Under the pieces are notes generated by a model. The model saw nothing but the letters and a program-made list of their open reading frames with translations. It did no database searches and was not told where the DNA came from. From contig CAXHJY010000093.1 in the NCBI GenBank assembly GCA_964016885.1, positions 1-64,000 on the forward strand: DNA of 64,000 nucleotides. Reading direction: 5' to 3'. The translations under genes and the position numbers were made by a program. This DNA comes from Eledone cirrhosa. Lineage: Eukaryota. Below are positions 6,313-60,427 of this stretch, piece after piece (positions within the stretch are counted from its first letter, which is position 1; each line of letters opens with the position of its first letter).

Positions 6313-7202
6313 TAGTATGTGTGCGTGAGTTAATATGTCAATTTTAGATTGGCAAATTTAGGATTTTTAAATCACTGCTCTCTGATTCTAGTTAACATCA
6401 ATTATGAATAGTTCTGTTTAGTTTAATGCTTGCAACTCGCCAAGAAAGAATTTTGTTCTTATAGATTATTCATATTTCTATAGACTGGCCTCCAGTTTCA
6501 ACTGTTTGCTTCATATCTCTTTGTTTTGGCCAGATAATCCCTTGAGCATTCATAGTTCTGGCTATTCATAGCTATTCACTGGACTTTTCTTTCCTTGTTT
6601 TCTAGTCTCTGTATGGATGGAACTGACTTGCTTTTCAAAAACCTTTTCCCTTGATATTCTATATTTTATTAATGTAAAATGTTAAACACATGAAAGTGAT
6701 TGAACTCAGCATTTTTCCCCTGGTGGTTCGTTTATTTTTTTAGTATTTTTTTTTTTTTTTTTGTGTGTGTTTGTTAGTTTGGTTGTTTTTTTTTATCTTC
6801 ATTGTGTGTTGTTTAGTTTAGACTGAGTGAGAAACAAAGAGGAGACTTTTCATTTCATTGAAGCGACGATGGCTCGCTTCTTTAGATCATTCACACACAC
6901 TAGTTTCTCATTTTGTATGATAATATTATTTTTGCTTGTATTCTTTTTCTATTGACATCTCTCACTTGCAGTGTCTTCTACATATTCCTGCAGGGAGAAC
7001 AAAAAAGATGTTTTAGACATACAAGGAATGCCTGTTGAAAAAAATTGCCGTTATTACCACAAGTGTGGTACCATCAAGTCCAAATAAATCTCCAATATTC
7101 AGCGACAGACCATTAGTAATGCTAGATACCGTAGAGTTACTTAAGTTCTCAGTAAAGTCCCTGTGTGCCATCTGTGATGGTGACCTACTTGAGGAAGGAA
7201 TT

Positions 7203-12040: not shown

Positions 12041-14133
12041 TATCATCATCATCATCATCATTTTACATCCGCTTTTCCCTGCTTGCAAGGGTGGGACGGG
12101 TCTTATTCAGCACAGCATCTCTCCACTCGTCACGGTCCCTCGTCATCTCCACCGTGAGCTTCAATGATCTGAGGTCTGTTCTCACCACCTCCGCCCATGT
12201 TTTTCGTGGTCTACCTCTACCACGTCTTCCTTCAACTGGCATTTCCTGGCACTTCTTCACCCATCGGTCATCCTCCATGCGCATCACATGTCCATACCAC
12301 CTCAGTCTCCTCTCCCGTACACTACATTCTATCCCTCTCAGACACAGTTTCTCTCTCAACACATTTATGCTGGGTCGTTCACGCACATTTACACTGCACA
12401 TCCAACGGAGCATGCTTGCCTCATTTCTCTCCAGCCGTTGCATATCCTCTGCGGTTGCTGCCCATGTCTCACTACCATGCAGCATCGCGCTCCTCACACA
12501 GGCATCATACAACCGGCCTTTCGTACGCAGGGAGAAACCCTTCTTCGTCAACAGAGGAAGCAGCTCCCTAAACTTCTTCCAACCCGTCCTTATTCTAGAT
12601 ACTATGGCCTCGGAACACCCTCCTCCCATGCTAATCTGATCTCCTAGGTACCGGAAGCTATCCACCACTTCTATAGCGCCCTCTCGCATTTGAAAAATGT
12701 GTCTATCAGTGCGACTTCTACTGTCTAATTTCCCTGTACATCTACTGCATACATATTTCTCCCTACCTGTTAGTTTGCCTGCTATCCCGCTACATCTCTT
12801 GTGTACCCAGGACCTGCATTGTGTGCATTTTATAGAATTTATGCCAGTTCCTTTTCTGCATATCGAACATGGCCATTTCCCTGACGGAATCAGGGTTTTG
12901 TCCTCTTTTCTACTCATCAACACTTTTGTCTTAGCTAGATTTACTCTCAGTCCTCTTGCTTCCAACTGCTGTTTCCATAGCCGGAATTTATTATCTAGCT
13001 TCTCTACTGATTCTGCTATAAGAGCCAGATCGTCAGCATAGAGAAGTTCCCATGGACAGCCAGTCTGAAACTCCTCTGTTATGGCTTGGAGGACTATAAT
13101 GAACAAGAGCGGGCTGAGGACCGAACCCTGATGTACTCCTACTTGTATCTGGAATTCCTCACTAAACTCCATTCCTACCCTGACTTTACTGAGAGTACCT
13201 CTGTACAAAGTTTGCACTGTCCTCACAAGCCATTCCTCAACACCTAGCTTCCTTAGGGACCACCAGATGACAGATCGGGGTACCCTATCAAAGGCCTTCT
13301 CTAGGTCAACAAAGGCTAAGTATAGTGGCTTATTCTTCTCTAAGAACCTCTCTTGCACTTGTCTCACCAAGAAGAGGGCATCTGTTGTACTCTTCCCAGG
13401 CACAAAACCAAACTGCATCTCATCTAGTTTGACCCTTTCTCTAATTAGTTGTGCTAAAATCCTTTCTGCCACTTTCATAACCTGATCTATCAGTTTTATA
13501 CCCCTATAATTGCTCCTCTCCAAAGCATCCCCTTTACCTTTGTAGCAATTTATGAGAATACTGCTGCACCAGTCTTTGGGTATGACCACCATATATAGCC
13601 TGATTGATGATGCGTGCAACCAGTTTAGTGCCTACGTCCGCTGATGCCTTCAGCATCTCAGCAACTATCCCCGAAGGTCCAGCAGCCTTACCGTTTTTCA
13701 TTTCCCTAATCGCCTCTTGGACCCTATAATCATCAATCTCAATAGCTGGTCCCTCTGTCGGATCTACCAAGGGTAATTTCTCTCTCTCCCATTCGTTCTC
13801 CACATTTATCAGTCTCTCATAATGACATTTCCAGGCCTCCTTTTTCTGGTCATTCGTGACACTAAGTACACCGGCATCATCCCGGACACATTTATCTCCA
13901 ACATCCTGATTTGCATTGACACACTGCCTTGCACTGTGGAACACCGCACGCCTCTGATCTTCCCGTCGCAGAACATTGGCAAACCTCCTACTCTCGGCCT
14001 CCCTGCGTGCTAAGTACACCTGACGTCTAGCTTCTCTCTTAGTGGCTGTATATTCTTCCCTACTCCCACCCTTTTTCCAAGCCTTCCATGCTAGTCTTTT
14101 GTCTCTAATGGCCTTATCTACTGTGCTGTTCCA
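12041..14133 (-). mobile_element. 5'-truncated RTE-clade non-LTR retrotransposon (LINE) with reverse transcriptase; one frameshift near 13590
   Basis: Overlapping ORFs 13534-14133 and 12063-13619 contain KAAGPSG, KGKGD...NYRGIKL, QFGFVPGKSTTDA, FVDLEKAFDRV, GVHQGSVLSPLLF, LLYADDLAL, FRYLG, RRLRWYGHVMR and RGRGRPRKTW. 3' tail is (TGA)n at 12041-12061. Both ends abut (TA)n. No endonuclease domain is present. Confidence 0.95.
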
Positions 14134-31313: not shown

Positions 31314-32447
31314 ATGAAGGGAGTTGTACATGCCTCTCTTAGGATGTGGCGCAATGTGGCCTTTTTAGTGTTGGTGATGCCACTGCTGTCTGTGAGTGGT
31401 GATTACATTGTAAGCAGTTTCCAAAGCTCTAAAAATGGATCCACCATGAACCATTATGTGGTTAACAAAAATACGGGCAAGATCTATGTTGGTGCTGTCA
31501 ACAGACTCTATCAACTCTCTGCCGACCTGAAGTTGGAGTTTAATGTGTCTACCGGACCGAAAAAGAGCAGTCCGCAGTGTCCACCGCAGAAATATTCCTG
31601 CAAGATAGGACAACTTACCGATACTTACAACAAAGTTCTCGTTGTGAACTATGCATCACAGGAACTGATTGCTTGCTCAACGCAGTTCCATGGTATATGT
31701 GAGAAAAGGCATCTTGCTAACATGTCCATCAACAACGCCAATGAACGACTCTTTAACCCGGTTGTTGCCAACAGCCTGAATGCAACTACTTTTGCTTTTA
31801 TTGCACCCGGACCAAGCCAAGGAAATGGCGTTCAGCCCAATGTACTGTATGTTGGTGCAACAAGAACCACCATTGGATTAAGAATATACCGCGATCTAGT
31901 GCCAGCCTTCTGTATTCGCAATCTTGAAGATTTCGAAATTGCATACAAAAGCCCTGTGGAGCAGAGTTCCAAAAAAGAAATTGAAACCCAACATAGAGAA
32001 ACATTCAAAGTGAACTACATATATGGCTTCAGCTCTGAGAAGTTCAGTTACATGTTGACTGTCCAGAAAGCCAACACCCAAGATGAACGATATGCTTCAA
32101 AGATCTTCCGGGTTTGTCAAAATGATAAAAATTTCTATTCTTACGCAGAACTATCTTTCAAATGTGGAAGTAACAGGATCTATAATTTAGTGCAAGCTGC
32201 TTACCTTGCTAAAGCAGGGAGCACATTGGCACAAAATCTTGGAATCCCTACAACTGAAGATGTGCTTTATGCTGTGTTTTCTCATGGACAGACCAACAAG
32301 GCTCAGCCCCAGCCTCAATCAGCGCTTTGCATTTATCCAATGCGGAAGGTTAGGAAAATATTTACCCAAAACATCCGCCAATGTTTCAAAGGACTAGGAA
32401 ACATTGGTCCTGAACATCTTACAAAGTCTACCTTGTGCCAAAAAACG
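31314..32447 (+). CDS. PlexA: First coding exon of a Plexin-A-like semaphorin receptor (signal peptide plus most of the Sema domain); the gene continues beyond this exon
   Basis: 378 codons of non-repetitive ORF. Hydrophobic leader (MWRNVAFLVLVMPLLSVSG). Plexin Sema motifs GKIYVGAVNRLYQL, NKVLVVNY, LIACSTQFHGIC, VVANSLNATTFAFIAPGP, NYIYGFSSEKFSY, RVCQNDKNFYSYAEL, YNLVQAAYLAKAG, DVLYAVFSHGQ, SALCIYPM. Polypyrimidine tract and TAG acceptor ending at 31303. Donor ACG|GTAAGT at 32447/32448, so the ORF tail to 32489 is intron read-through. The A-class call rests on remembered similarity to insect and vertebrate plexin A. Confidence 0.9.
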
Positions 32448-35356
32448 GTAAGTTATTTGGTTTTTTTTTTTTTTATTTATTTTAAATGAAGAAAAGAAAA
32501 AAAAAGAAAATCTTTATTATTTCTCTACTACAATGATGATGATTTTAGAAATCTAACCAGAAACAGTTTTATATGAGCAAGACACGGTCACCTGACACGA
32601 CTTGTCTCTAATGGGACAACCTGTCTAACCCATGCATAGAAAATGAATGGTAAACAAGTGATATTTCAATACCACCACCAGCTCCATACACCTTTCCATA
32701 CCCACACCATACTACCATCAACAATTTAAAGAAATAACAAAAAATCTCTCACTTTCTCCATATCTCTCTCTCTCTCTCTCTCTCTCACTCTCTCTCTCTC
32801 TCTCTCTCTCGCCATTCCTGTTTACCACCACCACCACCCCTTCTCTCTATCCTTATATTCCAAGATTGTGAATATATTCATCTCCTTCCATACAAAATCT
32901 TATATCCTCCACCCCAAATCAGAGTTGTCCCTTAATTAGTATCAGTTTCGTTTATTTATTTTTCACACACACACACCCCCCCCCATATCCCCAGGAGGTG
33001 TGAGAAAAATCAACAAAAAATCAACTAAAAAGACAAAACTTGTTTTATTGAAAGGTTAGTTGTCAACTGTGTAACAGCAAACATCTCTGTCCATGTCTTA
33101 GGTTCCCACAGTTTTACTGTTGCTGCTACTACTACTATTAACTTTATATTCACCCTTGCATGACCATAGTTCTAATGAAATACATTCTAACCTCAGTATC
33201 TCTCTAGTGTTTAGACTGTCGCGAATAAAACCACTGAAACTGAAATTGCAATATGGTGAGGAAAAGAAAGAAAGAACTTCAGTAGCTCTCTAGTACTTAT
33301 TGTAGGTAACTTCACTACCTCTCTAGTACTTATAGTAGTTAACCTCAGTAGCTCTCTAGTACTTATTGTAGATAACCTCAGTAGCTCTCTAGTACTTATT
33401 GTAGTTAACCTAATTTCTACATAAGTAACTGAAGCTATTTCTCCACAATAAGTCATTGTAAAACTAATGTTAAGGTCAGAGTGACCTCAAAATTTATTTT
33501 ACACTGACTTATTCATGTTAGCATGGGTTGGATAGGACTTTGGGCTTTAGAATTCTGCAGGGGGACATCGTTCCTGGTGACAACCACTTTACAGCATCTA
33601 CTGGATAACTTGTAGATAACTGGGGAGGTTGTCATATCCCTGACACAGCTAAAGGGTTCTTTTGGATGTTGTCTCCTGCACTGCTGTCTCTACTATTAGT
33701 CTTTGTGTGGTCAGCTCAACACATTAGTGGTTCTTTCCTCATTAAGCACAGGCTGAAAATTAGTTGAAAAATGGTGTGAATGACGTATTTAATTACAGTA
33801 TGTAAGAGATACTGGTGATATTGCTGACTTTATAAGTTTGGCACAAGGCCACATATTTATAGGAAATGAGATTGACATTGATTCCAGTATATTACTGGTA
33901 GTTACGCCATAGATTTCAATAGTGTGTGGGGCGGGCGGGGTATTGTTAACTCTCTGATCTTATTTAACTCTCAGCAGAATATTTGGGATTTTAGGCTGAT
34001 GCTTCATCTTTTTTTTGTTTTTTGTTGATTTTTTTGCTATCATAGCCATTTTAGTAGACAGCCATACTGCCACAAATCTGTGGAACGCACTCTCACTCTC
34101 ATTCTCACTCTCTCAAATACTCTCCTCTCTCTCTCATTCTCTCACCTACTCTCCTCTCTCTCTCATTCTCTCACCATCTTCCCTCTCTCCCTCTCTCTCA
34201 CTCTCTCTCTTCTTCCTCTCTCTCTCTCTCACTCCTCTCACCGTCTTCTCTCTCTCTCTCACACACATCATAAGAATGTACAGCCCAGTTCAGTTCAGCC
34301 AACATATATTATCTCTCCCTATCATTCCCCACTTTTTCCCCTCCTCACAAACTCGACTCCTTCTTTCTCTATCTTATTAACTGAAAAAGATTGAGAGCAA
34401 GCTCTGAATTAAAGCAGCCTGACCTCCCCGCCACCCTGTACACACACACCCAGCACACACACATACACTCACACCCAGCTCACACATACACTCACACCCA
34501 GCTCACACCCAGCACACACACATATACACAGCTCACCCAACACACACACAGCACACTCACACATATACATACACAAACACAGCACACACACACATACAAA
34601 AACACACACACACACACATCTCTTCTCAATTCTATTCCCCTCCTGTTCCCAAGCCCACAGTGTCAATAAGATAGGTTTTTAAGATGAGATGTGATTGAAG
34701 TGAACAAGGAGGACAAAAATGTTGGCCGGGAGGTGGGAAGAGTGTCAGTCCAGCCCCTGAGGGTTATTGAATAAGGCATTTACTGTTCCCTTAAAACTCC
34801 CACAGGACATGTCTAAATAGGGAAACTATGGGCAAGAAGGGAGAAAGAGAGAAGGAGTAGGGACTTAGGGTGATAATGTTTTGTTTTGGAGGTGGAGGGG
34901 GGGGGGGGCAGTATGTAAAATAAAATAACAACAACAATAAAAAAAAGGTAGTTATGACTTAATAAAGGGCATCTCTGCATAACATATACTGATATGGGAG
35001 CAGATCTCTGCAGTGTTGTACTGGAATGGAGAGAGAAAGAGAGAGACTGTGTGAGTGTGTTGCTGGAAATCACAATTGCTGGCTTTATTCTCCAGTAATT
35101 TCATTATTGCATGAAAGATTCTCTGTTATTTGGCGATTGGCCATTTCCATTAAACTAGGTCGGCACTTTGTAACTTTGTTTTTGCTTAGAAAGGATTTTT
35201 TTCTTGTATTTTTTTTTTGTTCATTTGTGTGTGTGGATGTATGAGTGTATGTGTGTGTGTGTAGACGTATGAGTGTGTGTGTGTGTGTATGTGTTTCTGA
35301 ATATTACGACAACTAAGCAACTTTTGATGAAGATAATGTTCTCATTACCATTATAA

Positions 35357-38908: not shown

Positions 38909-38960
<52 letters not shown>

Positions 38961-38984
38961 GTAATAAACGAAAGATATATACTT

Positions 38985-39062
38985 TATTTCGTTATATATA
39001 TTCCGAAGATGTAAAGTTTTATGTATAACATAAAATAAAACATGTCCTCCTCAGACAAAATA
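38985..39062 (-). ncRNA. Minimal hammerhead ribozyme, family 4, with a core substitution (GGAA for GAAA)
   Basis: Minus strand reads tattttgt-CTGAGGA-ggacatgt...acatcttc-GGAA-tatata-TA-acgaaata. It lies in a ~180-bp island between (TA)n tracts (38958-39137). Confidence 0.65.
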
Positions 39063-39133: not shown

Positions 39134-39177
<44 letters not shown>

Positions 39178-39278
39178 AGTGGAAGTTTAGTAAAATCGGA
39201 GTTTTGGCTGTGTCCAAGCTAACGATATACATTTAGGAATGAACAGCAAAGCACTCAATAAGGTTGCAGGCCTTAGAG

Positions 39279-39470
39279 TAATAACTGTTTCTACTTTTGG
39301 CACAAGGCCAACAATTACCCCAGTGTATTACTGGTACTTTATTTTATCGACCCCGTAAGGATGAAAGGCAAAGTTAACCTCGGCGGGATTTGAACTCAGA
39401 CCGTAAAGGGACGTAACTCTATGCTGGAAAGCATGGCGTCCGACTCTCTACTGATACTGCCAATCCACCA
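39279..39470 (-). mobile_element. SINE family 1, full length
   Basis: Near-identical reverse complement of 45412-45600. Confidence 0.9.
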
Positions 39471-39564
39471 CCCAGGAATAACATAGGTTAGATAGGTTGA
39501 CAAATTGAGGTAAACTAAGCCACATAATACCAAATCAACGAAAAAACTAATCAGGTTATATATA

Positions 39565-39735
39565 GTCTGTCTGTCCCGGCTCAGAGGGGGGGAGTTGTCC
39601 AGGAGGACAGTGGGGGAAATGGACCTCAACAGCCAACTCTGTTCTGACAACAGTGAAGGTTTTAAGCAGTTGAGGTCCATCTCCCTCACTGTCCTCCTGG
39701 ACAACCCCCCCTCCTCTGAGCTGGGACAGACTGAC
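39565..39735. repeat. GC-rich imperfect inverted repeat (~66-bp arms, ~38-bp spacer); MITE- or foldback-like
   Basis: gtctgtcccggctcagagg...gttgtccaggaggacagtg...atggacctcaac pairs with gttgaggtccat...cactgtcctcctggacaac...cctctgagctgggacagac. Confidence 0.85.
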
Positions 39736-39816
39736 CCTTAAGTTTCATTTATAGTTGGTAGCAGTGTGCATTTGATTTACATCCATAAGCACTCACACAC
39801 ACATACATACATACAG

Positions 39817-39847
<31 letters not shown>

Positions 39848-41903
39848 TACGCACATACATACACAAACACAAGCACACATACCTATACACAGACATACAT
39901 ACACACACACACACACATACATACATACATACATACATACACACACACACATACACACATACATACATACATACATAAAAAGTTAACAGTTAACCCTGAA
40001 AAGGAGTTAACTTGTCCTCCAAGGTACACAGTTGCTGCACCTGTCTCTGACCCTCACCTCAACCCTACACCACCACCACCACCCTTATATACTGCTTCTC
40101 ACCTATAATCCTCTATCCTATCCCCCTCTTTCTCTCTCTTTTGACAAGTTCAATATAAATTAAATCCCCCCCCCCCCCCCCCCCACCAAAGCAACAGCAA
40201 CAAGACAAGCTACCTAATTTCTCCTCCCACCCACCCCTCACCAGTCTAGTTAAGCTCTTCTATACTTGGAGGTGAAATCAGTACACTACATACATGTAAA
40301 CATTAGATGGATTCCTCACTGAAATTTTCTTGGCTCATTCCTTATATCTTTTCTTCTCTTTCTTCTTCTTCTCTTTCTTTGTTGCTTCCATTTTGGATAT
40401 TTGGCACTCCTGGCTAATAAAATAACCTTAGACAGTTGGAAAGATGGTGTGGGGTGGTGGTGGTGGTGGTGGTGGTGGTGGTGGTAGTAATTATAATGAT
40501 GATGGTGATACTTGTGGTGGTGGTGGTGGGTGGTGATGATGGTGGTGGTGGTGGTAGTAATTATAATGATGATGGTGATACTTGTGGTGGTGGTGGTGGG
40601 TGGTGATGATGATGGTGGTGGTGGTAGTAATTATAATGATGATGGTGATACTTGTGGTGGTGGTGGTGGTAGTGATGATGATGGTGTTGGCAGTGGTGGT
40701 GGTTATGATGGTGGTGGTGGTGTTGGGTGCTGGCTGGGGGTAATGGTGGTAGTAGTAGTGGTAGTAGTAGTAGTAGTGGTAGTAGTAGTAGTGGTAGTAG
40801 TAGTAGCAGTGAGGACTTTTGCCAAAATTGCAGATAGACTACTTTCGAATTCCCAACTTGTAGGTCAACTTAGAGCAAAGTCAGACAGAGGAAAGGGGTC
40901 TCCTAGGTCAATGGTGGTGGTGGTGGTGGTAGTGGTGGTGATGGTGGTGGTGGTGCTGGTGGTGGTGGTAGTGGTGATGGTGGTAGTGGTGGTGGTGGTG
41001 GTGGTGGTGGGGTTGTTGGTGTCGTTAGTAGTGATGGTGGTGGTGTAGTGTGTGGTGGTAATGACTGGCGGTTGTAGTGGTGGTGTGCTGGCGGAGGTGG
41101 GTAGGAGTAGCCTGAGGTCATCTGAAGGAGAATAAATAAATAAATAAATAATGAAGGAGGGAAGAAATAAAATAAATTTAGAAAGAAACAAAACAGGAGC
41201 CAACCATATTTTTATATTTGATTCCATACTACAGATATAGCTGCTCTTTCACTTAGTTATACCACACGTGTGTAATGTAGACATACTGTGTCTGTATGTA
41301 TATATGCATGTGTGTATGTGTGTGTATATATACATATATATATATAGAGACAGAGAGAAAGAAAGTCGTGTCATATTTATAATGCACAAGCATAGACATA
41401 CACAGTGTGCATATATATATATACATGTGTGTGTGATTTTATAATATATATGTGTGTGTGTATATATATATGTGTGTGTGTGTGTAAGTATATATATATA
41501 TATATACTTCCATTTTTCACTATATATATATGTATATATGTGTGTATATATATATATTAACCGCATGCTCACATTCTCATTTAAACATACATACACTCAT
41601 ACACTCTACCATTTACACCTGTGTTTGCACACATAAATACACACACATAAATACACATAAATACACACACATAAATACACACACTTAAATACACACACTT
41701 AAATACACACACATAAATACACTCTTGTATACTATAAATATGCCTCTCACAGTTTACTGCACTCTGAAGCATGCCCCCCCCCCCCCCGTTTGGTTGTCTG
41801 TACATGCAAAGGCTCAGCCACACACACACACACACATGCATGTCTATATATAGACATACACACACAATCTACACTATATCTGCTACTTCTACTGCCAACC
41901 TAT

Positions 41904-41957
<54 letters not shown>

Positions 41958-42011
41958 TCATCCACACATATATATACACACAATCTACACTATATCCTCT
42001 ACTACTGCCAA

Positions 42012-42087
<76 letters not shown>

Positions 42088-42136
42088 ATATATATATACA
42101 CACACACACAATCTCCACTGTATCCTCTACTACTGC

Positions 42137-42180
<44 letters not shown>

Positions 42181-43399
42181 CACACACACACACACAACTC
42201 CACTGCAATCTCTACAACTGCCAAACTTACCTTTTACACAGTTGGGGAGTGATTTCCAAATAAATTTGTAAGAATGCTGGAAGGTGGTGGTTAATTGAAT
42301 TCTGATGATAGTGGAGCAGTGTAGTGGTTGTATTGATTGGTTTAGATTGTATAGCAGCAGGTGAGGTGAGGTGGTGGTGAGCAGGGGATGTGGGGTGAGG
42401 TGAGTGGTAGTGGTGGTGGTGGTGAGCAGGTGGGGTGAGTGGTATGGTAGTGGTGGTGGTGGGGGTTAGAACCATTGGTCATTTAGATTAAGCTGCTCCC
42501 TTGTAGGGGTGTGATTTTCAACCCCTGTCCACTGTAATAGAGGATTAGATAAGGGCTGTCCCCTCTCTATCTCTCTCTCCCTGCCTTCTTTTCCCCATCC
42601 AACTGAATAATCTGTCCCCAATGGCCACTGTCCCAAATGAAACCTGACAACATCAGAGCCAATTTTAGTTTTTATCTAGACTTATATTAAAATATTAAGA
42701 TTAGTGGTGGCGGTGGCGGCGGCGGTGGTGGTGATGGTGATGGTGGTGGTGGTGGTGGTGATGGTGGCGGCGGTGGTGGTGATGACAATAATAATGATGA
42801 TTATTAGTAGCAGAGGAGTGACAGATATCTAAATATCTAGACTTGACTGTCAGCTTTCTTTTCATGCCAGTCTCTGAAGAGACGAGACCTAGAGACCTCT
42901 GGTGTCCCCAGTCACTGAAGAGACGAGACCTCTGGTGTCCCCAGCCACTGAAGAGACGAGACCTCTGGTGTCCCCAGTCACTGAACTGTCATTTTCTTCA
43001 GCAACATTATGAGGAGTGCATCTCACCAACATGTTAAGAGATAATGCTGCAAATCTTCACAACAATATGTCTACTAGTAAAAATACTATAACCATTTGAA
43101 TTAACAAACCTATTTTTAGATATTTTGTGCTAAATCATTACAGCATATTAAGAAACAAGTCACTTGCTGAACTTTTCATTATGAGTATATATATATCTAT
43201 CAAATAAAGTGTCCAGCCCTTGATTTAGATGATCCTTTGTTTTTATTTTATTTTTTGCCACACACCTACTGCAGGAAAACATAATGATGAAACACATGTT
43301 AATTTTACATATGACTTTTGAGTTAACTAACTGGCTTATTAACAAACATTACAACACCACTCTCAACCTATTACAATCACCACCATCATGGTGACTGAC

Positions 43400-43600
43400 C
43401 CCCAACCGAACAGGGGGATCCTATATGTGGTACCCTCGACCTCCTAGAAATAGCAGCTAAATCACCTTTACCTCAGGAAAGACACAATGGATAATGTAGT
43501 CCTGGATGTACAAAAGGATGGGATGGCCAAGATGAAAATAAAATGTCTTTGATCATAGGGCTGTTTAAACATGTTTGTGACTAAACAACAGCCACAACAC
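43400..43600 (+). repeat. Old dispersed repeat, probably a third SINE-like family
   Basis: The motif ctagaaatagcagctaaatc recurs in diverged form at 47431(+), 18940(-) and ~310-375(-). Confidence 0.4.
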
Positions 43601-44949
43601 CACCACCATTTATGGCTAAACACCACCACCACCATCTGTGGCTAAATATTACCACCACCACCACCACAGTCTTTATACAAGGATAAAACTAGGAATCTGG
43701 CTTGGGGTATCTATCTCAACCATCTCCTCCCCCCTCTCTCACCATCTCCTCCTCCCTCTCTCACCATCTCCTCCTCCCTCTACCCTCTATGCTACCACTA
43801 AATGGCAAAGAAAAGTTAAATACGCCCCCCCCCCTCTTCTATATTATATCTATATTTATCTATTTATATGTTTACTGTGGAACCCTGAAAACCTTTATTC
43901 CCTTGTCCTTTCCATTTGACATTTATGTGATGGAGGGAGGGAGAGAGAGAAGGGAGTAGATGGAGGGAGAGGGAGGAGGGGGTAGCTGGAGGGAGAGAGA
44001 AGGGGTAGAGGGGGGGATAGAGAGAAAGGATGGTGTTAGCATTTGTTTATTTGGTTTGGTTTTAAGGCTGAGAGGGGTGTGTATGTGTGTGGTTATGTAG
44101 ACATGTGTGTGTGTCTGTGTGGTTATGTATGTGTATGTGTGTGTGTATGTGTGTTAGGAGTATCTTAGTCTCTGTTGAACTACACTGAGTCTGGTCTGAC
44201 CTTTTTGTTTGAAATGATCTGATGCCACCACCATCACCATCATTATCACAGCAGCCATCACACCACCATCAACACCACCATCATTATCACAGCCACCACC
44301 ATTTAAAATCACTACTATTGCTACAAGGTTGTTAATTACTCTCACCATTCTCATCATTATCATTACCACCACCACCACCACCACCACCACCATTACCACC
44401 ACTACCACCATTACCACCACCAGCACGTCATTAACACCAACAGAGTCAACAACTACCAAAGCAACAATCAATATATAGTACTTTGGTAGGGTCAAAAACA
44501 CATGCACCAGTTAAATTTCACTCCAGTTTTTTTTATTATCTATTAGTCAAGTACCTAACCAAATCCATTGGTTTGTTTAGGGACCAAATGGTTATTTAAT
44601 TGTCAAAGGAGAAGAGAAAAAAGGTGGAGTAACTGGGGCAAAGCTGAAGAGGGGTCATAAAGGTAAAAAGTCATTGAGAAGGTCACTGATTGTGACAAAA
44701 GAACTTTGACACTTAAATAACTATTTGGCTGCTAAACCAACCAACAAATAGATAGATTAGTTGTCTGACTAAATAATAACATTTGACCCCTGAAATGAAA
44801 GTCAACTGATGTGTGTGTGTGTGTAGGGGGGGGGGGTATTGGCAGCATGACGCCCCTAAGTTATATCTATTTCAACACAATTTCACATCAAGAATCTTGC
44901 ACACAAATCCAAATATGAAACAACATACATGTATAACATAACTCTTTAC

Positions 44950-45250
44950 ACCTAACCACTCTACCATTCTACCACTGTACCACTATAACCTAACCACTCT
45001 ACCATTCTACCACTGTACCACTATAACCTAACCACTCTACCATTCTACCACTGTACCACTATAACCTAACCACTCTACCATTCTACCACTGTACCACTAT
45101 AACCTAACCACTCTACCATTCTACCACTGTACCACTATAACCTAACCACTGTACCACTATAACCTGACCACTATGCCACTCTACCACTATACCACACCAT
45201 AACCACTATACCACACCCTAACCACTCTACCATTCTACCACTATACCACA
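44950..45250. repeat. 38-bp tandem repeat
   Basis: Unit cctaaccactctaccattctaccactgtaccactataa. Confidence 0.9.
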
Positions 45251-45411
45251 CTAAAACCATCTTCCCTCATTACCATCACCAGGTAAACCATTTAGCTTTA
45301 TTCCTTAGTGTGTGTTTTAAGTTAGGGGTGAGTGGGTGGGCAATAATGGTTATTCTACTGATGGCAGAAGTGTATATATATATATATATATATTATTATA
45401 TGTAATATTGA

Positions 45412-45600
45412 GTAGGATTGGCAGTATCGGTAGAGGGTCGGACGCCATGCTTTCCAGCATAGTTACGTCCCTTTACGATCTGAGTTCAAATCCCGCCGAG
45501 GTTGACTTTGCCTTTCATCCTTACGGGGTCGATAAAATAAAGTACCAGTAATGCACTGGGTAATTTGCTGGCCTTGTGCCTAAAGTAGAAACAATTATTA
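45412..45600 (+). mobile_element. SINE family 1, full length (a second, truncated copy is at 45752-45851)
   Basis: Head, B box, core and tail. Further partial copies at 25214-25282(-), 36975-37045(+), 47785-47935(-), 52635-52720(+) and 63887-63972(-). Confidence 0.9.
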
Positions 45601-46619
45601 TATGTAATAATATATATAGTTAGTTAGACCTTAATAAGCCTTAATAAAGTGATTTTCACACACAGGCTTGTTATGGGTGTTAAAATAATGCAGTTATGTA
45701 TTTACTCAAATGTGTGTGCCAAGAAAGAAAGAGAGTACTCAATATATGTAGAGGATAACTTTGCCTTTCATCCTTACGGGGTCGATAAAATAAAGTACCA
45801 GTAATGCACTGGGATAATTGCTGGCCTTGTGCCAAAAGTAGAAACAATTATTTAGTTTATTTAGTGTGTGTGGACTGGTCCCAGGTGGTTTGGTATCTAA
45901 GGGGTTAATTCACCTACTAAACTTATCCAGTACCAATAAGAAATAAAATGATTTTAGTTGAAACATCTGAAATGGTGTCAAAAGTTCAAAATTGTTAAAA
46001 GCTAATGATAGCAACAGAACCAGGTGGCTGGCTGTCTGCTCTCCCCTCTTCCCCCATAACACACACTTATAACATTTGGCCACCATAGGAACTGTTAGTA
46101 GTTAGGGGAGTTTATTCTGTATGTATGACTGTGTGTATAGATATTTGTGTCATGAAGGAAGACAAATATAGGTCTGTATCAACCCCAAACTAGTCGAGCC
46201 CTTTTTTACCATATTTCTAATGAAAGGCACTGCTTATAATTTCTTTTTATGTAATCAAGAAGTTGGAGGATTTAGTGATGTAACTAACCTTCTCATTATT
46301 AAATTATCTTAATGATAGGGACCCCAGTCTTATGTTGTTATAGCCACACCTATGTAGGTTCAGCAGGTCCTCTACAAGGTTTTATCTCATAGGGGGTTTC
46401 TCAGGTGTTTTAATGAAGGGAGATTTAGTGATCTAACTAACCTTCTCATTATTGAGTCGATGTTTGGAACATATCTTAACAATGGTTCTTGCATAAAATT
46501 TATGGTGGAAAGTGTTTGTATATAAATATAATTACTTTAAAACAAACAGTTTTGTATCTAAGAACCAAGGACCCAGTTTCAGACAGAAAAGGGTCCAAGC
46601 AATTATCCCCTTCCCTTAA

Positions 46620-47056
46620 CCCTTTAGCATTTAAACCAGCCATATCCGGCCAGAATTGTCTCATCCCTTTCTGTTCAAGCCAGCCGTAACTGGTCACTCA
46701 TACTGATGTTAAGAAATTGTTCTCAAAATAAATAATACCAAAATCTCATAGATTCGAAACTATGTGAGATAATTATATGAGATAAAGCCTTTACCATGAA
46801 AATACAATAGTAGATATAGAGTAATGTAAATGTTATGTGAGGTATTATATGAGATAAAGCCTTTACCATGAAAATACAATAGTAGATGTAGAGTAATGTA
46901 AATGTTATGTGAGGTATTATATGAGATAAAGCCTTTACCATGAAAATACAATAGTAGATGTAGAGTAATGTAAATGTTATGTGAGGTATTATATGAGATA
47001 AAGCCTTTACCATGAAAATACAATAGTAGATATAGAGTAATGTAAATGCTAAAGGG
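46620..47056 (-). mobile_element. piggyBac-type MITE family A with an internal 4 x 72-bp tandem expansion
   Basis: Reverse complement of family A. Period is 72 (GATAAAGC at 46781, 46853, 46925, 46997). Confidence 0.85.
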
Positions 47057-49345
47057 TTAGACATGGAACACATTTACAAATATATATTTTGCTGGGGTCT
47101 CCTCTGCCTCATTTTAATAAGGCTTAGTCATTATGCTGATAATTATTTGTTTTGTTTTTTTCATTTCACTCCAGGTGTGATTTTAATTAAAATTTTTGTC
47201 TCACTATGTTAACTACATTACCAACCACTCAACTATATTTTCTCATGCAGAAGGCATCACTGGGTAGCTCCACCCCTCCCTTCTCCTTACCATTTTTCTT
47301 TCTTATTCAGCTTGCCTACCTTCATCCATATTTTTGCATAATTTCCATGTCTTATAGTCTCACCTCCCCCACGACTGCTGTGATTGAACAAACCTTTAAT
47401 AGGATAACTCTATATAATCTCTTAGAGTCTGCTAGAAATAACAGCCAATTTCCTCTTTCAACCCTCCCCCTATCCCTTTTGTTACCATATTTCTAATGAA
47501 ATCCACTGCTTTTGAATTAATTAATGAAGAATTTGGAGGGTTTTGCTGAAATTATTATTTTGTTATTTAAATGGAATTTGTAACATAACAAAAAGATTTT
47601 TACATCAAATTTAATTAGGAACCATTTAAAAGGGCTATGGACAAAAATATTGAAGAATTTGGCATACAGCATGTCTTGGACGTTTTTAAAACCTGGTGGA
47701 TGCCATCTCCTCTTCACATCTGAACACTGCAGGTTTCTTCTAGAGAAGGATAAAGAGAGTGACAGAAAGAGATATAGAGAGGCAGAATCGACCCCAGTAC
47801 AAGACTGGTACTTTTGTATCGGCCTTGAAAGGATGAAAAGCAAAGTTGACCTCGGCAGGATCTGAACTCAGAGAATGGAGAACCAGACACATTTTATTCG
47901 ATGTTGTAACGACTCTGGCAGTTTGCTGCCTTTGTCTCCACGTGTGATGTATGTTAATAGAGACATTTCTATTTAGTTAGGAATTTAGTCTGTGTACGTG
48001 ACTGGCTGTCAGATGAAGCCATACCCGCAGGCTAAGAATTTTTAAATGGCTTCGGAATTGTTTTCCTTTATTTCTTCTTTCATCTCTGATAATGAAACTA
48101 TTAATTAATTTCTGATAATAATCAAAGAGGTTTACCAAGCTTGTAAAATGGTGTAGTGAGTGGCTGACCGATTGGACAACTAGTTAAAAGTTCATCATTT
48201 CATAAATTTGTCACTGATGTTACGTTATCTGTGCTCAATAAATGTAGAACTCAATACAAGGTTTGGTACTGAGTATCTACAGAAAACAGTATAATCTCTA
48301 TTTCAGCTAAGTTAGTTAACCCGTTTCTCATTATATACACATAGATGTTTTTGTAGGGCAATAAACACACACAGACACACACACACTTCACACTGAACAT
48401 ATATACCCTGTATGGTGGTTGGTGATAGGAAGGACATCTAGTTGTAGAAATTATGTCGAAAAAAAAGGAGAGAACTCTTCGTGTCAAGGGGTCAACCACC
48501 TTTTGAGTGTTGGTGACATAATAAAAGATAACTGATATATTCTATAAAGAGTGAGAATGTGTAAGCGGGATGCACCCCCCCCCCCCGGGTCTACCCGAGG
48601 GGTCAGTAGTCTTGGCTATTTACTGACTTGGCCTGAAACGATCTTTCCAGCCTTTGCTTACAAGGAAAATGGACATGAAATGATGTTGATGATGATGATG
48701 CTGATGATACCCCCGCCCCTCACACACACGCACACCAACTGATTGCTTTAAACAAGCCATAATGAGTGGCTGTCTAAATGAGTTATCTGTCATGTTAGCT
48801 TTGCTTTAATTATCTTGTTTCCTCCTCAATACATTTTAATTAAGATCCACAAAGATTTATAATTAATATAAACATTCCAACTGCCCACTTTGATCCAGTT
48901 ATAGATACCATACTAAAACTTAATTTAATTTCTAGTGGTTGTAATGTTCTCAGAGATGAGCTGCTATAGATCTCATTTGCCATTCTTCTACCATTGTCTA
49001 ACTTGAAAGATCTTATAATTGGACATTTTCAAAGAGGAGCTACACTTTCTTAAACCATGAGAGGAAAAAAACTGCCTTTCTCTCCCCAACTAAGTGGCTA
49101 AAAATAACAATAACAATAACAACAAAACTGCAACAGGAAGAAATAGTCCAGTTCAGTCCAGCCCAATCCAGTTCAGTCCAGTCCAGTTCATTCTCTGTAA
49201 TACCATGATATCGATATATCATCATCATCATTTTATGACGATGTCTCCACGCTAGCATGGGTTAGATGAGTTGTCCTGTTGTGGGCAGTGCCAGGTCAGG
49301 CAACCGTGCCTTGCTCATATATATATATATATATATATATGAATA

Positions 49346-49385
<40 letters not shown>

Positions 49386-49541
49386 TAGATGTATATAGAT
49401 GTATATATATATATATATATATATATGAATAGATGTATATATATATATATATATATATATGAATAGATGTATATAGATGTATATATATATATATATATAT
49501 ATGAATAGATGTATATATATATATATATATATATATGAATA

Positions 49542-49579
<38 letters not shown>

Positions 49580-49581
49580 TA

Positions 49582-49625
<44 letters not shown>

Positions 49626-49627
49626 TA

Positions 49628-49658
<31 letters not shown>

Positions 49659-49698
49659 GAATAGATGTATATATATATATATATATATATGTGTGTAA

Positions 49699-49756
<58 letters not shown>

Positions 49757-49814
49757 ATGTATGTATGTAAAGATATATATATAAATATATATATACACAT
49801 ATATATATATATAT

Positions 49815-50002
49815 ATAGTGAAATAAAATAACAAGGACGATTGGTTACTTCTTCATTACGTTTACTGGTTGGTGACACGCGTTTCACCACTGATCAGCTC
49901 AAGGTTGGATCTGTATCGATCTGACCCGACTCTGTAATCCACGGCTCGTCAGACCCCTCGTAATGTAAAAATGAATATACTCCAAGTTACACTCCCTGGA
50001 TA
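49815..50002 (-). mobile_element. Penelope-like element, family 2, with a hammerhead-like motif (49862-49963) that has an extended stem II
   Basis: Minus strand reads ggt-CTGACGA-gccg...tggt-GAAAC-gcgt-GTC-acc. The terminus TATCCAGGGAGTGTAACTTGGAG and the 3' part are shared with 53414-53617. Confidence 0.6.
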
Positions 50003-50029
50003 TATACATATTATATATATATATATAAT

Positions 50030-50389
50030 ATATTCAATGATATTAATAAATGGAAACTATATTTATAAAACCATATTTATGCTATTATATATATTTCAAG
50101 GATACCAACATTTTGGTACGCTCTCTTCAGATAAAAATACGAAGTGTGTTTTATAAATTTTGACACAACCAAGGAGAATATACCTTAACGGTTCAAGTTA
50201 TCCTTGAGCGTACCAAAATTTTGGTACCCTTGAAATATATATAATAGAATAAATATGGTTTTATAGATATAGTTTCCATTTATTTAATATCATTGTATAT
50301 ATTATACTCCAGAAAACTTGTAGAGTGCTCTAAATCAGTTATAAACAATTATATTTGTTGAATTACCAACAAATTGAATATCCCTTCTA

Positions 50390-50392
<3 letters not shown>
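50030..50392 (-). mobile_element. Hammerhead-bearing Penelope-like element, family 3, with ~95-bp inverted repeat and AGCACTC hairpin
   Basis: 50030-50123 is inverted at 50206-50300. Hairpin motif at 50305-50329. TA-rich or (TA)n flanks. Confidence 0.75.
50078..50138 (-). ncRNA. Minimal type-I hammerhead ribozyme
   Basis: Minus strand reads tattttat-CTGAAGA-gagcgtaccaa-aatg-ttggtatcctt-GAAA-tatata-TA-atagcata. Stem III is the palindrome ATATATAT. Confidence 0.75.
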
Positions 50393-50449
<57 letters not shown>

Positions 50450-50490
50450 ATACATATATATATATATTGTATACATATATATATATATTG

Positions 50491-50586
<96 letters not shown>

Positions 50587-51904
50587 CGTCTAAGCCATGC
50601 TAGCGTGGAAAATGGACGTTAAACGAAGATGATGATGATGATATATATATACAAAATTTAGTACAGCATCAACGAAGCCCTGGTTGCAGCCAAGCTAACG
50701 AATGCAGTCTCGGTGTGCAGCTAAGCACTCAATAGGGGTATATAACCCTAGAGTTACGTTTAGACAGCTTTGCAAAATGAAGACAGCGACCGATAGAAGG
50801 GCCGCAGTGACCATAGCAACGAAAAAGACTGAACTCAGGAATGTTTCTATATAAGACAAAGACAGAACATTATATCTGACTAGACATAAAGTTGTTGTTG
50901 ATGGTGTAGTAGTCTCTCTCTCTCTCTTACTAACTCTCCCTCTGTCTATTACCTGTTACCCTCTATCTATCTCTCTCTCTCTCTCTCTCTTACTAACTCT
51001 CTCGCTGTCTATTACCTGTTACCCTCTATCTGTCTCTCTCTCTCTCTCTATTCCTGTTTCCCCTGGACTGACTGAGGGACATATGAAGGGGACACATATG
51101 AAGGGGTGGATGGGTGCATGTATAAACCAAAAAAAAAATCCTCATCCTCCTCCTCATCGGCTATATCGTCACCATTATCACCATTATCATCATTATCATC
51201 ATTATCATCATTATCATCAGCATTGTCATCATAGTTCTGCTTGCTGTCATTGTCTACATGCGTGAGTGTGTTCATGTCAGTGTGTTTGTGTGTGTGTGTA
51301 CATTTATGTGTGTTCGTGTCAGTGCATGTGTAGAGACACACAACACAGAGAGGGGGGGGCGTATGTGATTGTGAGAGAGAGAGAGAGGGAGATGTATGTG
51401 ATTGTGAGAGAGAGAGGGAGATGTATGTGATTGTGAGAGAGAGAGGGGGTGTATGTGATTGTGAGAGAGAGGGAGATGTATGTGATTGTGAGAGAGAGGG
51501 AGAGAGAGATGTATGTGATTGTGAGAGAGAGGGAGAGAGAGATGTATGTGATTGTGAGAGAGAGAGGGAGAGAGAGATGTATGTGTGTATTGGCAGTTTT
51601 TAAACAGTAAAGTCAACATGAAACAAACAGTTTGCTTTATACACACACACACATACATACACATATACAAACATACACACAAACGCACACATACACTCAC
51701 AAACAATCACTCAGAAACATACACATATATACACACACATAAACATAGACATACAGATATATACACAAACACACACACACACACATATATATATATACAC
51801 TCACATATACACACCCAGAGCACAGTTTAGAATATGTAAATATATTCACTGTTAAATCATAATTTATCTATCACTAAAAGGAAATTAGATTAAAAATTCA
51901 ATTT

Positions 51905-51960
<56 letters not shown>

Positions 51961-52294
51961 CATATGATATAATTATAAATTTATGAATTCATGCATATCT
52001 ATATATTTATGTATGCATATATATGCATTAGTATATGTATATAGTTATGAATACATGCATATGTATACATACATGTGTGTGTGTGTGTATATATATATAT
52101 ATACATACATACACTGGTATCTACCTGTCTATGGTAGCACCAATAACATTGTCAGAACTACTACCAAAGTAATAATTCCAATAAGATCAGGTGATGAGAG
52201 TTTAGTTTTTGTTTCTCTAGTAGACTTTCATTATATTGGATTCTGTAGATCATTCCATTGAGCTACAGAGTCATATATATATATATATATATAT

Positions 52295-52330
<36 letters not shown>

Positions 52331-52350
52331 TCATCATCATCATCATCATC

Positions 52351-52537
52351 ACGTGGTGGTGGAACAGTAAGGTGGAAGAGACAATCAAGGCCAAAAAGCA
52401 GGCTTGGAAAGTATGGCAGGATGGGGGAAGTAGAGAGCACTATCAAGTGGCCAGGAGAGAAGCTAGGAGACAAGTGTACCTTGCAAAAAGGGTAGCAGAG
52501 GATAGAAAGTTCAAGTATGTTATGCAACGTGAGGACC

Positions 52538-52540
<3 letters not shown>
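52351..52540 (+). mobile_element. Internal fragment of a related RTE LINE
   Basis: Translates as TWWWNSKVEETIKAKKQAWKVWQDGGSREHYQVARREARRQVYLAKR...QREDQ, collinear with WNSTVDKAIRDKRLAWKAWKKGGSREEYTATKREARRQVYLARR...RREDQ of the 12-14 kb copy. Confidence 0.85.
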
Positions 52541-52604
<64 letters not shown>

Positions 52605-52789
52605 CATTATATATATATATTTATATATATATATGCCTTTCATCCTTATGGGGTCGATAAAATAAAGTACCAGTAATACACTGGGTATTTGCTGGCCTTG
52701 TGCCTAACGTAGAAACAATTATGTATATATATTTATATATATATATACACATATATATTGTATTACACTCCCTGGATATATATATATAT

Positions 52790-52993
52790 ATAAATGGTTG
52801 TCTTGTTTTCACTCTTCATGTTCGATTTTTTGTGTCTTTACCCAGACCTTTTTTCTGGTTCTCCTTTGTGATCCTGTCTCTATCTGTACTCCCGAGGAAG
52901 GGCTTAAGCCCGACATGTTAAACTTTCTTTCCTCTTTCCAGTAGAACACATGAAACCAATAAGACTTTTGTACCTCTGTTTATTGTCTCCTTG

Positions 52994-52998
<5 letters not shown>
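52790..52998 (+). mobile_element. Degenerate Penelope-like fragment with a decayed hammerhead core at 52892-52920
   Basis: CCGAGGA-a-gggc-ttaa-gccc-GACA-tgtt resembles CTGANGA-stemII-GAAACGTT. The island lies between (TA)n tracts. Confidence 0.45.
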
Positions 52999-53049
<51 letters not shown>

Positions 53050-53055
<6 letters not shown>

Positions 53056-53383
53056 AGATCAGAAGATGGTTAAAAGAGTTCCATGTATTTTATTATGCGC
53101 ATTTCAAAAACAAATATCATGCAATAACATTTGCGTTTTCGTCAGATAAAATAGGGAGACATGATATGAAGGTTAAAACACACTTGTGAATAGTGCAGTT
53201 TTAAATCAACAAATGTTATTGCATGATGATATTTGTTTTTGAAATGCGCATAATAAAATACATGGAACTCTTTTAACCATCTTTTGATCTTATATATTAT
53301 TTATACTCCAGTCCTACAAACTGTAGAGTGCTACTTATCCGATATCTGCATTGCTTTATTGTACTATAATAAAACTCACCTCC

Positions 53384-53387
<4 letters not shown>
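53050..53387 (-). mobile_element. Hammerhead-bearing Penelope-like element, family 1, with partial inverted repeat and AGCACTC hairpin
   Basis: Arm 53050-53133 is the reverse complement of 53210-53300. Hairpin motif at 53304-53332. (TA)n on both sides. Confidence 0.8.
53086..53153 (-). ncRNA. Minimal type-I hammerhead ribozyme
   Basis: Minus strand reads tattttat-CTGACGA-aaacgcaaatgttat...atgatatttgttttt-GAAA-tgcgca-TA-ataaaata, with a perfect 8-bp stem I. Confidence 0.8.
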
Positions 53388-53413
<26 letters not shown>

Positions 53414-53418
<5 letters not shown>

Positions 53419-53611
53419 AGGGAGTGTAACTTGGAGATACAGTAGGTTACCCGGCTGAGCACTTGATGTTTAGGTTTACTTCTGTGTCGAGGTGTAGAGC
53501 TAGACTGAGTGTATTATAGTAAAATAAAATAAAAGGACGACGAGTGGTGACGAAACGCGCAACACCAACTAATAAACGTAATGAAGGGGTAACCACTCAT
53601 ACTTGTTATTT

Positions 53612-58259: not shown

Positions 58260-59682
<1,423 letters not shown>

Positions 59683-60427
59683 GCACACGCACACATATAT
59701 ATATATATGTGCGTGTATGTGTATACCTATGGCGAGTGTTTTCGCGCATGCTTGTGTATGTACGTATATGGATGCGTGTATGTATTTATTTAATTTCTAT
59801 TACCTCTGTATTTTATTACTTTATTCTTAACTCTGAAGCCGAGGATCATTCGGTTCCTAGTTAGAATTTTAGTCTACGACTTCACTTATACCATTTACGT
59901 GTTTTGTCTTTGCGTGCAATTGTTCTCCACGCTCCACATATGACGTATTATCTTCGTTTTTTCCGTTCATTGCCAGAGAACGTCTCTATGAACCACCTAA
60001 GAGAACATTAGTCTACGACCTCTTTTATACCATAAACGTGGTTCTGTCTTTGCGCGTAATTGTTTTTCACCGCTCCATTTAATGACATATTATCTTCGTT
60101 TTTTCCCGTTCTTTGCCAGGGAACGTTTCCACGAACCAAAGTATCGTCTTCCTGTCTTTCCCCGGTTGCAACGTTTTTTGAAATATTCACTTCTGCGTTC
60201 ACAGATTGACTTTGTTAGTTTCAGAAAATCCCGTTAAGGGTGAAAGCAGCGATTCTTTGCTTAAACTTTAATCTGTTATTTTAATAAACAAATATATATA
60301 TATATATATATATGCCAATTAATTATAAGTTGGCACTATATGCTAATGAGTATTTATAGCTGATGTTTTCTATTTGCTATATGCAAATGAGCATCTCCTA
60401 TACGAGTGAATGTATCTCATGGGTGTG

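Follow-up and report, generated by a model that had tools for sequence, protein, structure and literature searches.

Paired bulged hairpins at the copy ends of Hydra-clade Penelope-like elements in Eledone cirrhosa

Insertions of Penelope-like elements (PLEs) with inverted pseudo-long terminal repeats consist of head-to-head arms and carry a short extension, the tail, at one end only (PMC3846280, PMC8557442). One PLE clade, Hydra, described by Craig et al. (2021, PMC8557442), combines the motifs RWK and DKT, a CxCX5C linker and a C-terminal endonuclease (EN) with hammerhead ribozymes and insertion into (TA)n. The window considered here, which is the whole 64,000-nt stretch at positions 1 to 64,000 of contig CAXHJY010000093.1 from Eledone cirrhosa (assembly GCA_964016885.1), contains four copies of a small bulged hairpin beside (TA)n arrays, and the carrier of this motif is, by its sequence features, the Hydra clade of C-terminal EN+ PLEs. 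The hairpins come in pairs, their stems covary, copies end at the foot of either hairpin, and head-to-head arms use one hairpin each. The favoured explanation, with a probability of roughly two in three, is that hammerhead and ATG are separated by a pair of bulged hairpins, of which the motif is the first, and that each hairpin is likely bound by the reverse transcriptase (RT), with copying starting a few bases 5' of it.

In vitro work on the Poseidon PLE of Anolis carolinensis, PAc (Frangieh et al. 2024, PMC11167929), showed that its RT has two internal start sites, which delimit the tail. RNA 3' of these sites is required, nicking and extension affect both target strands, and the hammerhead is dispensable in vitro. 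Compared with PAc, the hairpins of Hydra are two in number, conserved, bulged and located in the 5' untranslated region (UTR), each just 3' of an AU-rich copy end. Their spacing, 67-166 nt in 10 families, exceeds the 30-40 nt of PAc (PMC11167929) and the 30-40 bp given for PLE tails. The parts of the tail literature covered (PMC3846280, PMC8557442) name no end signal, whereas both copy ends of Hydra map to a repeated hairpin.

The four motif copies lie where the original prediction had placed them, at 39250-39279(+), 50306-50329(-), 50724-50754(+) and 53305-53332(-), and the window families are named after these first hairpins: A for 53305, B for 50306, C for 50724 and D for 39250. Shuffled windows contain 0.42 matches on average and none of 100 reaches four. 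The distance to (TA)n, predicted as 55-80 bp, is 75 nt for 39250, 63 for 50306, 73 for 50724 and 54 for 53305. The strand given in the prediction is the antisense one; in element sense, which is the strand of hammerhead cores and open reading frames (ORFs) and is used for the hairpins in Table 1, the motif reads ACTC...GAGTGCT. The motif had also been said to adjoin the hammerhead directly in two cases, but in the families of 50306 and 53305 about 120-130 nt separate GAGTGCT from the core upstream of it; at 39280 the hairpin is adjoined by an insertion resembling a short interspersed nuclear element (SINE). The copies were thought to belong to four different elements, but 39250 and 50724 are homologous (80% over 192 nt), hence their common CCAAGCTAACGA upstream. 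Two window copies (A, B) come from ORF-bearing Hydra families and two (C, D) are related ORF-less tandem elements. A fifth, degenerate copy of the motif lies near 53458-53511(-).

A search of the 3.0-Gb genome of the same species with the pattern (TA)4-N45-75-AGCACTCWA-N8-24-GAGT returned 136,844 forward and 20,937 reverse matches, compared with 27 and 101 for the same pattern read backwards. The forward count is inflated by overlapping match starts within TA arrays, and the true number of sites, judged from the reverse count, is probably near 40,000. These matches are copies of amplified families and not independent events.

In element sense the order is RCTC, stem-loop, two bases, GAGY-RCT, 37-79 nt and (TA)n, which gives the consensus RCTC-[stem-loop]-UN-GAGY. 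In loci fetched for the analysis (numbered with the prefix L, from the genome of Eledone cirrhosa or from metagenome contigs), the hammerhead core (CUGANGA...GAAA) lies about 90-190 nt before GAGTGCT, on the strand opposite to that of the original prediction. A sequence-only harvest, partly biased since many loci were fetched through motif or homology searches, yielded 254 instances, which fall into 64 clusters. At least two copies are present in 27 of the clusters, and 21 of these 27 show the upstream RCTC. With a 2-nt bulge the mean inner stem of this local set is 3.24 bp, compared with 1.51 when the 3' arms are permuted (0 of 2000 permutations), while bulges of 0, 1, 3, 4 or 5 nt give no significant excess. 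The local outer pair is A-U in 141 cases, G-C in 17, G-U in 8 and A-C in 1, and the loop is free in length, from 3 to about 90 nt.

A second set was built from metagenome contigs, in which an alignment of six local ORFs led to 77 loci (from the best 80 of 247 matches). The 51 loci with at least 100 nt upstream were scored; they form 32 clusters at 75% DNA identity, some near-duplicates (L324, L325) being kept. Here the outer pair is G-C in all 51 motifs, and inner pairs 1-3, counted without a pairing criterion, are formed in 96, 73 and 71% of the 51, compared with 77, 42 and 38% after permutation (0 of 5000 each). The excess is again confined to motifs with a 2-nt bulge; in 48 of 51 the bulge reads UU, UC or UA. 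The 2-nt bulge and the covarying inner stem described in the original prediction are supported by permutation in both sets, and neither a shuffle-level frequency nor a loss of covariation in the larger set, either of which would have spoken against the motif, was found.

The assignment of the carrier to Hydra follows from its ORFs. Two short RT patterns match 422 and 6,303 places in the genome, with none in the controls, and intact ORFs at these places contain RWK or RWR, DKT, CxCX5C and a C-terminal nuclease. All six aligned ORFs have RWK or RWR with DKT as well as the CxCX5C linker; family A has RWI or RWT with DKT and family B has RWR, and the loci of these two families stop before the linker. 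The C-terminal EN, as read from the alignment, is GIY-YIG-like without CCHH and has CxxC and CxH near its end; Pfam does not recognise the Hydra ORF. Hydra-like EN pieces lie upstream of family A tails in L029 and L109. A pattern search predicts hammerhead cores of the form CUGANGA...GAAA for families A and B as well as for loci with an ORF, and the motif families insert into (TA)n by both the genome pattern and the copy ends. Hydra elements are generally short (<3 kb), but repeat units in Eledone cirrhosa can exceed 4 kb: in L159, the one family measured, the tandem unit is about 4.3 kb and has a microsatellite-rich 3' UTR. At the outer pair and behind the stem, A-U and GCU are commoner in the local families, G-C and ACU being the form elsewhere.

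Neptune-type ORFs, with a CX2-5CxxC linker, are likewise present in the genome and were found by a GIY-YIG search. Neptune was rejected as the partner of the motif, which is absent from all 4 5' regions, including two that are truncated, and from all 9 3' ends, counts that include one other GIY-YIG family. Copies of the Neptune elements themselves also end at two places (L062 at 6550-6625 in ORF orientation, L072, L067, L073). Each place is an internal TATA-like stretch with small hairpins of another sequence behind it, and Neptune elements may own a paired signal of their own.

Among the 16 ORF-start clusters of the local set, 11 represent distinct families with an intact upstream region, the rest being truncated or duplicates. 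In 10 of these 11 the order, by eye, is hammerhead, hairpin 1, spacer, hairpin 2 and ATG. A strict hairpin descriptor, tuned on the same data that it scored, finds 20 sense and 1 antisense hairpins in the local 5' regions, compared with 0.23 in shuffles. The existence of hairpin 2 behind the tail end was predicted beforehand and its pattern matched 257 times for family A and 18 times for family B, with no match in the controls; the read-through loci then continue into a Hydra-type ORF in 12 of 12 cases for A and 10 of 12 for B. A pattern for direct read-through from tail to ATG was given up because it returned mostly ordinary tail ends, although it did expose the diversity of the families. In the metagenome set, 44 of the 51 5' regions contain the motif (1.74 when shuffled); the 7 antisense matches are due to the palindromic outer stem. 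The motif is also present in 26 of 40 metagenome regions behind a 3' hammerhead (0.66 when shuffled), and at the family level in 28 of 32, twice in 23 of 32. No Hydra relative was found among viral contigs. Among the consensi of the PMC8557442 supplement, inspected by eye, three have the exact hairpin: Hydra-2_Amil, Hydra-2_Ajap and Hydra-1_Ajap, the last of which shows it two times shortly ahead of its ATG.

Copies ending in TA were placed on 11 read-through references and an end was counted as hairpin-bound when it fell between -8 and +2 of the first base of a hairpin. This holds for 160 of 194 copies overall and, among loci not fetched by the motif, for 97 of 115 (45 at hairpin 1 and 52 at hairpin 2), compared with 8.6% if ends were uniform. 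Most misses lie at -9 to -18 or in the L182 family, and one falls inside a hairpin. The two arms of head-to-head pairs were classed with wider end windows, 37 pairs with a read-through or unclassed arm being excluded. Sixty of the remaining 66 pairs are mixed, with one arm at hairpin 1 and one at hairpin 2, where 32.7 are expected if the arms are independent; in six both arms are short, and no pair consists of two tailed arms. Unselected loci show the same (36 of 40 mixed), as do all three foldbacks in the window. The one-sided extension that characterises inverted PLE insertions is thereby found in 60 of 66 pairs. With one arm per hairpin and hairpin 2 left uncopied, the 55-80 bp gap of the original prediction corresponds to the PLE tail, from hairpin 1 to the foot of hairpin 2; the predicted distance stands, while the junction itself is marked by the second hairpin, visible in read-through copies.

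Families C and D have no long ORF (longest frame 85 amino acids), and Hydra matches occur in 2 of 60 loci, both on the opposite strand. One locus of each family is a tandem, L272 with a period of 659 nt and L312 with one of 602 nt. A UUGAYGA...GAAAC core with a long stem II is present in 7 of 30 loci of C and in 4 of 30 of D, 5' truncation being common among the others, and this hammerhead-like core has U instead of C at position 3. Five C/D loci read through: of the four from C, three have a complete hairpin 2 and one breaks off early, while the single D locus has a degenerate hairpin. By these features C and D look like non-autonomous, retrozyme-like elements. Non-LTR retrozymes (LTR, long terminal repeat) have been described as non-autonomous PLE derivatives (bioRxiv 10.64898/2026.07.22.740005), and C and D are likewise ORF-less, tandem where read-through is seen and equipped with a hammerhead-like core, which however starts with UUGA and not CUGA. 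The part of the preprint covered deals mostly with vertebrates and names no recognition signal.

The proposed mechanism is modelled on PAc (PMC11167929). The RT-EN protein would bind a hairpin in read-through RNA, nick (TA)n and prime cDNA at the AU-rich stretch just 5' of the hairpin, so that the hairpin in use would never be copied. A start at hairpin 1 would give a short copy, and a start at hairpin 2 a copy that includes hairpin 1 and the spacer, that is, the tail. Both hairpins would be used in one event, one per nicked target strand, as the strict one-of-each composition of the arms suggests, and C and D would be mobilised in trans through the hairpins that they keep. Small, often bulged RNA stem-loops that recruit a cognate RT are known from the 3' ends of stringent LINEs (long interspersed nuclear elements) and SINEs and from hepatitis B epsilon. 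The LINE stem-loop lies inside the copied part, whereas the Hydra hairpin in use would lie outside it, and the likeness implies no homology.

Several observations weigh against a start signal read by the RT in RNA. Single hairpins fold weakly (z = -0.5, +0.68, -1.31 and -2.25), by which measure thermodynamic stability is a weak candidate for the signal, and the hairpin at 50306 is missing from its minimum free energy structure. The wobble bias of the sense strand is modest (G-U 29 and A-C 12 locally, 12 and 6 in the metagenome set) and does not distinguish RNA from single-stranded DNA, because a G-T wobble works in the latter as well. None of 49 C/D copies, nearly all of them selected by their tails, ends at hairpin 1. 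The preset pattern for hairpin 2 found nothing in C and D, whose second hairpin was recognised only afterwards; it has a long loop, about 80-90 nt in the three complete C copies, and its first base is altered. L182 has no clear hairpin 2 yet has a second end cluster. Among the published consensi in the supplement of PMC8557442, again by eye, Hydra-1_Obim is without the hairpin and Hydra-1_Amil and Hydra-1_Crog have degenerate forms only. In PAc the RT starts lie within the ORF, in a stem loop that is AC-rich, and show no homology to the target (PMC11167929), and both permutation tests ignore the relatedness of families.

The same mapping of ends would also be obtained if the GIY-YIG EN recognised the hairpins in cDNA or donor DNA and cut 5' of each, resolving a longer-than-unit intermediate into staggered ends. 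Craig et al. ascribed the tail to EN-mediated resolution (PMC8557442), and the EN of D. virilis needed the tail to recognise plasmid DNA (PMC11167929). This is nevertheless unlikely, as both ends in the sole PLE tested are RT starts on RNA (PMC11167929) and covariation of a stem whose loop varies from 3 to about 90 nt disfavours recognition of a duplex sequence. Stalling of the RT at hairpin 1 is not supported, since 60 of 72 tailed arms run past it. The location of the hairpins between hammerhead and ATG might point to a role in RNA processing or expression, such as hammerhead docking, nuclease blocking, promoter function or translation control, with the RT starting at RNA 3' ends made there, and RNA processed at two places would also yield two copy ends. 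Such a role is rather improbable: the ORF-less C and D keep the hairpins, which makes translation control unnecessary, independent RNA ends would not yield 60 mixed pairs out of 66, and the hairpins lie anywhere from about 90 to 300 nt from the hammerhead core.

That the motif is a passenger of common descent, the ends being set only by microhomology of AU-rich stretches to (TA)n, is largely refuted and carries very little weight. The ends do lie in AU-rich stretches and amplification does yield high copy counts, but the motif is kept twice, with compensatory changes, among families with about 40% ORF identity and unalignable flanks, and other AU-rich stretches within the same 300 nt are unused as ends. 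Returning to the two hairpins as RT start signals, it is conceivable, although on balance doubtful, that the hairpin pair of a single RNA is occupied by two RT-EN protomers, one per hairpin, and each primes on one nicked strand of (TA)n. This would be a two-strand, twin-primed form of target-primed reverse transcription (TPRT), both arms deriving from one RNA. Within an insertion the two arms resemble each other more closely (95.3%) than arms taken from different insertions do (89.8%), and the own partner is the best match in 31 of 50 cases, which fits a shared RNA, a single source locus or later conversion alike.

Published accounts already exist for the clade with its hammerheads and (TA)n target, for the one-sided tail and for retrozymes derived from PLEs. 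The element family is thus known, while the hairpin itself is real, testable and apparently undescribed. A full-text search of the literature, which covered the main texts of the retrozyme preprint and of PMC11167929, returned no description of it, and the words "hairpin" and "stem-loop" have no occurrence in the main text of PMC8557442, nor is the hairpin or its pairing described in the parts covered. The hairpin, its covariation and the end mapping support the conserved, covarying and apparently undescribed cis motif linked to the retrotransposition machinery that the original prediction had put forward.

The features of the window are collected in Table 1.

Table 1. Positions and strands of hairpins, tails, arms and neighbouring features in the window.
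Position	Strand	Feature	Basis
53305..53332	+	Hairpin 1, family A: ACTC, 4-bp inner stem, UA bulge, GAGUGCU	pattern match
53333..53386	+	Tail, family A, ends in (TA)n; read-through copies continue to hairpin 2 and a Hydra-type ORF	
53041..53175	-	Inverted short arm, family A, predicted hammerhead core CTGACGA (53145), ends at hairpin 1 foot	
53209..53304	+	Long arm, family A: hammerhead 3' part to hairpin 1	98% to L238
50306..50329	+	Hairpin 1, family B: 3-bp inner stem with one G-U pair	
50330..50391	+	Tail, family B, ends in (TA)n at foot of uncopied hairpin 2	
50030..50186	-	Inverted short arm, family B, predicted hammerhead core CTGAAGA (50130)	
50724..50754	-	Hairpin 1, family C (ORF-less tandem element)	
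50652..50723	-	Tail, family C, ends in (TA)n; read-through copies continue to long-loop hairpin 2	
50755..50841	-	5'-truncated body, family C copy	relatives match query 65-254
39250..39279	-	Hairpin 1, family D (homologous to C)	
39176..39249	-	Tail, family D, ends in (TA)n	
39280..39472 (ends approximate)	-	SINE-like insertion at hairpin 1 foot	5/30 D loci
39473..39553 (ends approximate)	-	Family D body, upstream of insertion	compared with D relatives
53417..53513	-	Degenerate fifth hairpin 1 and tail, L216 family	83% to L216
14513..14744	.	Family A foldback: tail-only arm from just 3' of hairpin 1; hammerhead arm to hairpin 1 foot	
60121..60288	+	Short L183 Hydra-family copy, (TA)n end about 5 nt before hairpin 1	

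The SINE-like insertion beside the family D hairpin sits exactly at the hairpin 1 foot in L290, L292, L303, L310 and the window copy, and in 0 of 30 C loci; in L310 an apparent target duplication of about 14 nt surrounds it. It may be one old insertion amplified together with D, or the site may be a preferred target. In other Hydra families, the second end cluster of L182 lies about 45 nt ahead of the ATG, and behind it stands GCAC...GTGC, which may be a compensatory variant of hairpin 2. Two hammerhead-like motifs, at 4944 and 6393 of L159, lie in its 1.9-kb microsatellite-rich 3' UTR, and some copies of this family end behind the first of them with no hairpin after it. A hairpin-1-like motif with a GCTC/GAGT wobble is found 500-750 nt after the Hydra-family ORF in L141 (5199), L142 (4714) and L144 (5305), and its tail resembles that of family B.

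Elsewhere in the window, a 374-nt inverted repeat at 58967-59730 with hammerhead-like cores at 59317 and 59380 matches a Neptune-family 3' end, and hammerhead-like cores of other families lie beside TA arrays at 38958-39060 (-), 49900-50010 and 52860-52995. Pfam searches of ten window ORFs gave one ORF with RVT_1 and one Sema match, and no GIY-YIG. The former, a 521-amino-acid frame at 12063-13631 (-) that also contains a PHD finger, is probably a piece of a non-LTR retrotransposon; the latter, at 31314-32489 (+) with an E-value of 2.8e-08, is probably a host semaphorin or plexin exon. No Hydra or Neptune ORF pieces were found in the window. Among the Rfam matches listed (150 of 231 in one scan and all 28 in another) there is no family at gathering score and no hammerhead, the matches being repeat-driven miRNA only.

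How PLEs choose internal start sites and form inverted arms and a one-sided tail are still open questions, one element having been studied in vitro. Reading the hairpins as start signals would account for the one-sided tail of Hydra insertions, and a clade-wide paired hairpin at both copy ends makes tests with point mutants possible. Twin-primed TPRT, if true, would explain why Penelope-like insertions are inverted in structure and have a tail on one side, and would make the hairpin a tag of 20-30 nt by which unrelated ORF-less RNAs are mobilised. The hairpin is also a marker for Hydra-dependent non-autonomous repeats, of which there are tens of thousands in the genome of Eledone cirrhosa. Finally, the RTs of PLEs are the sister group of telomerase RTs, and an RNA element that positions the entry of the template would be of wider interest.

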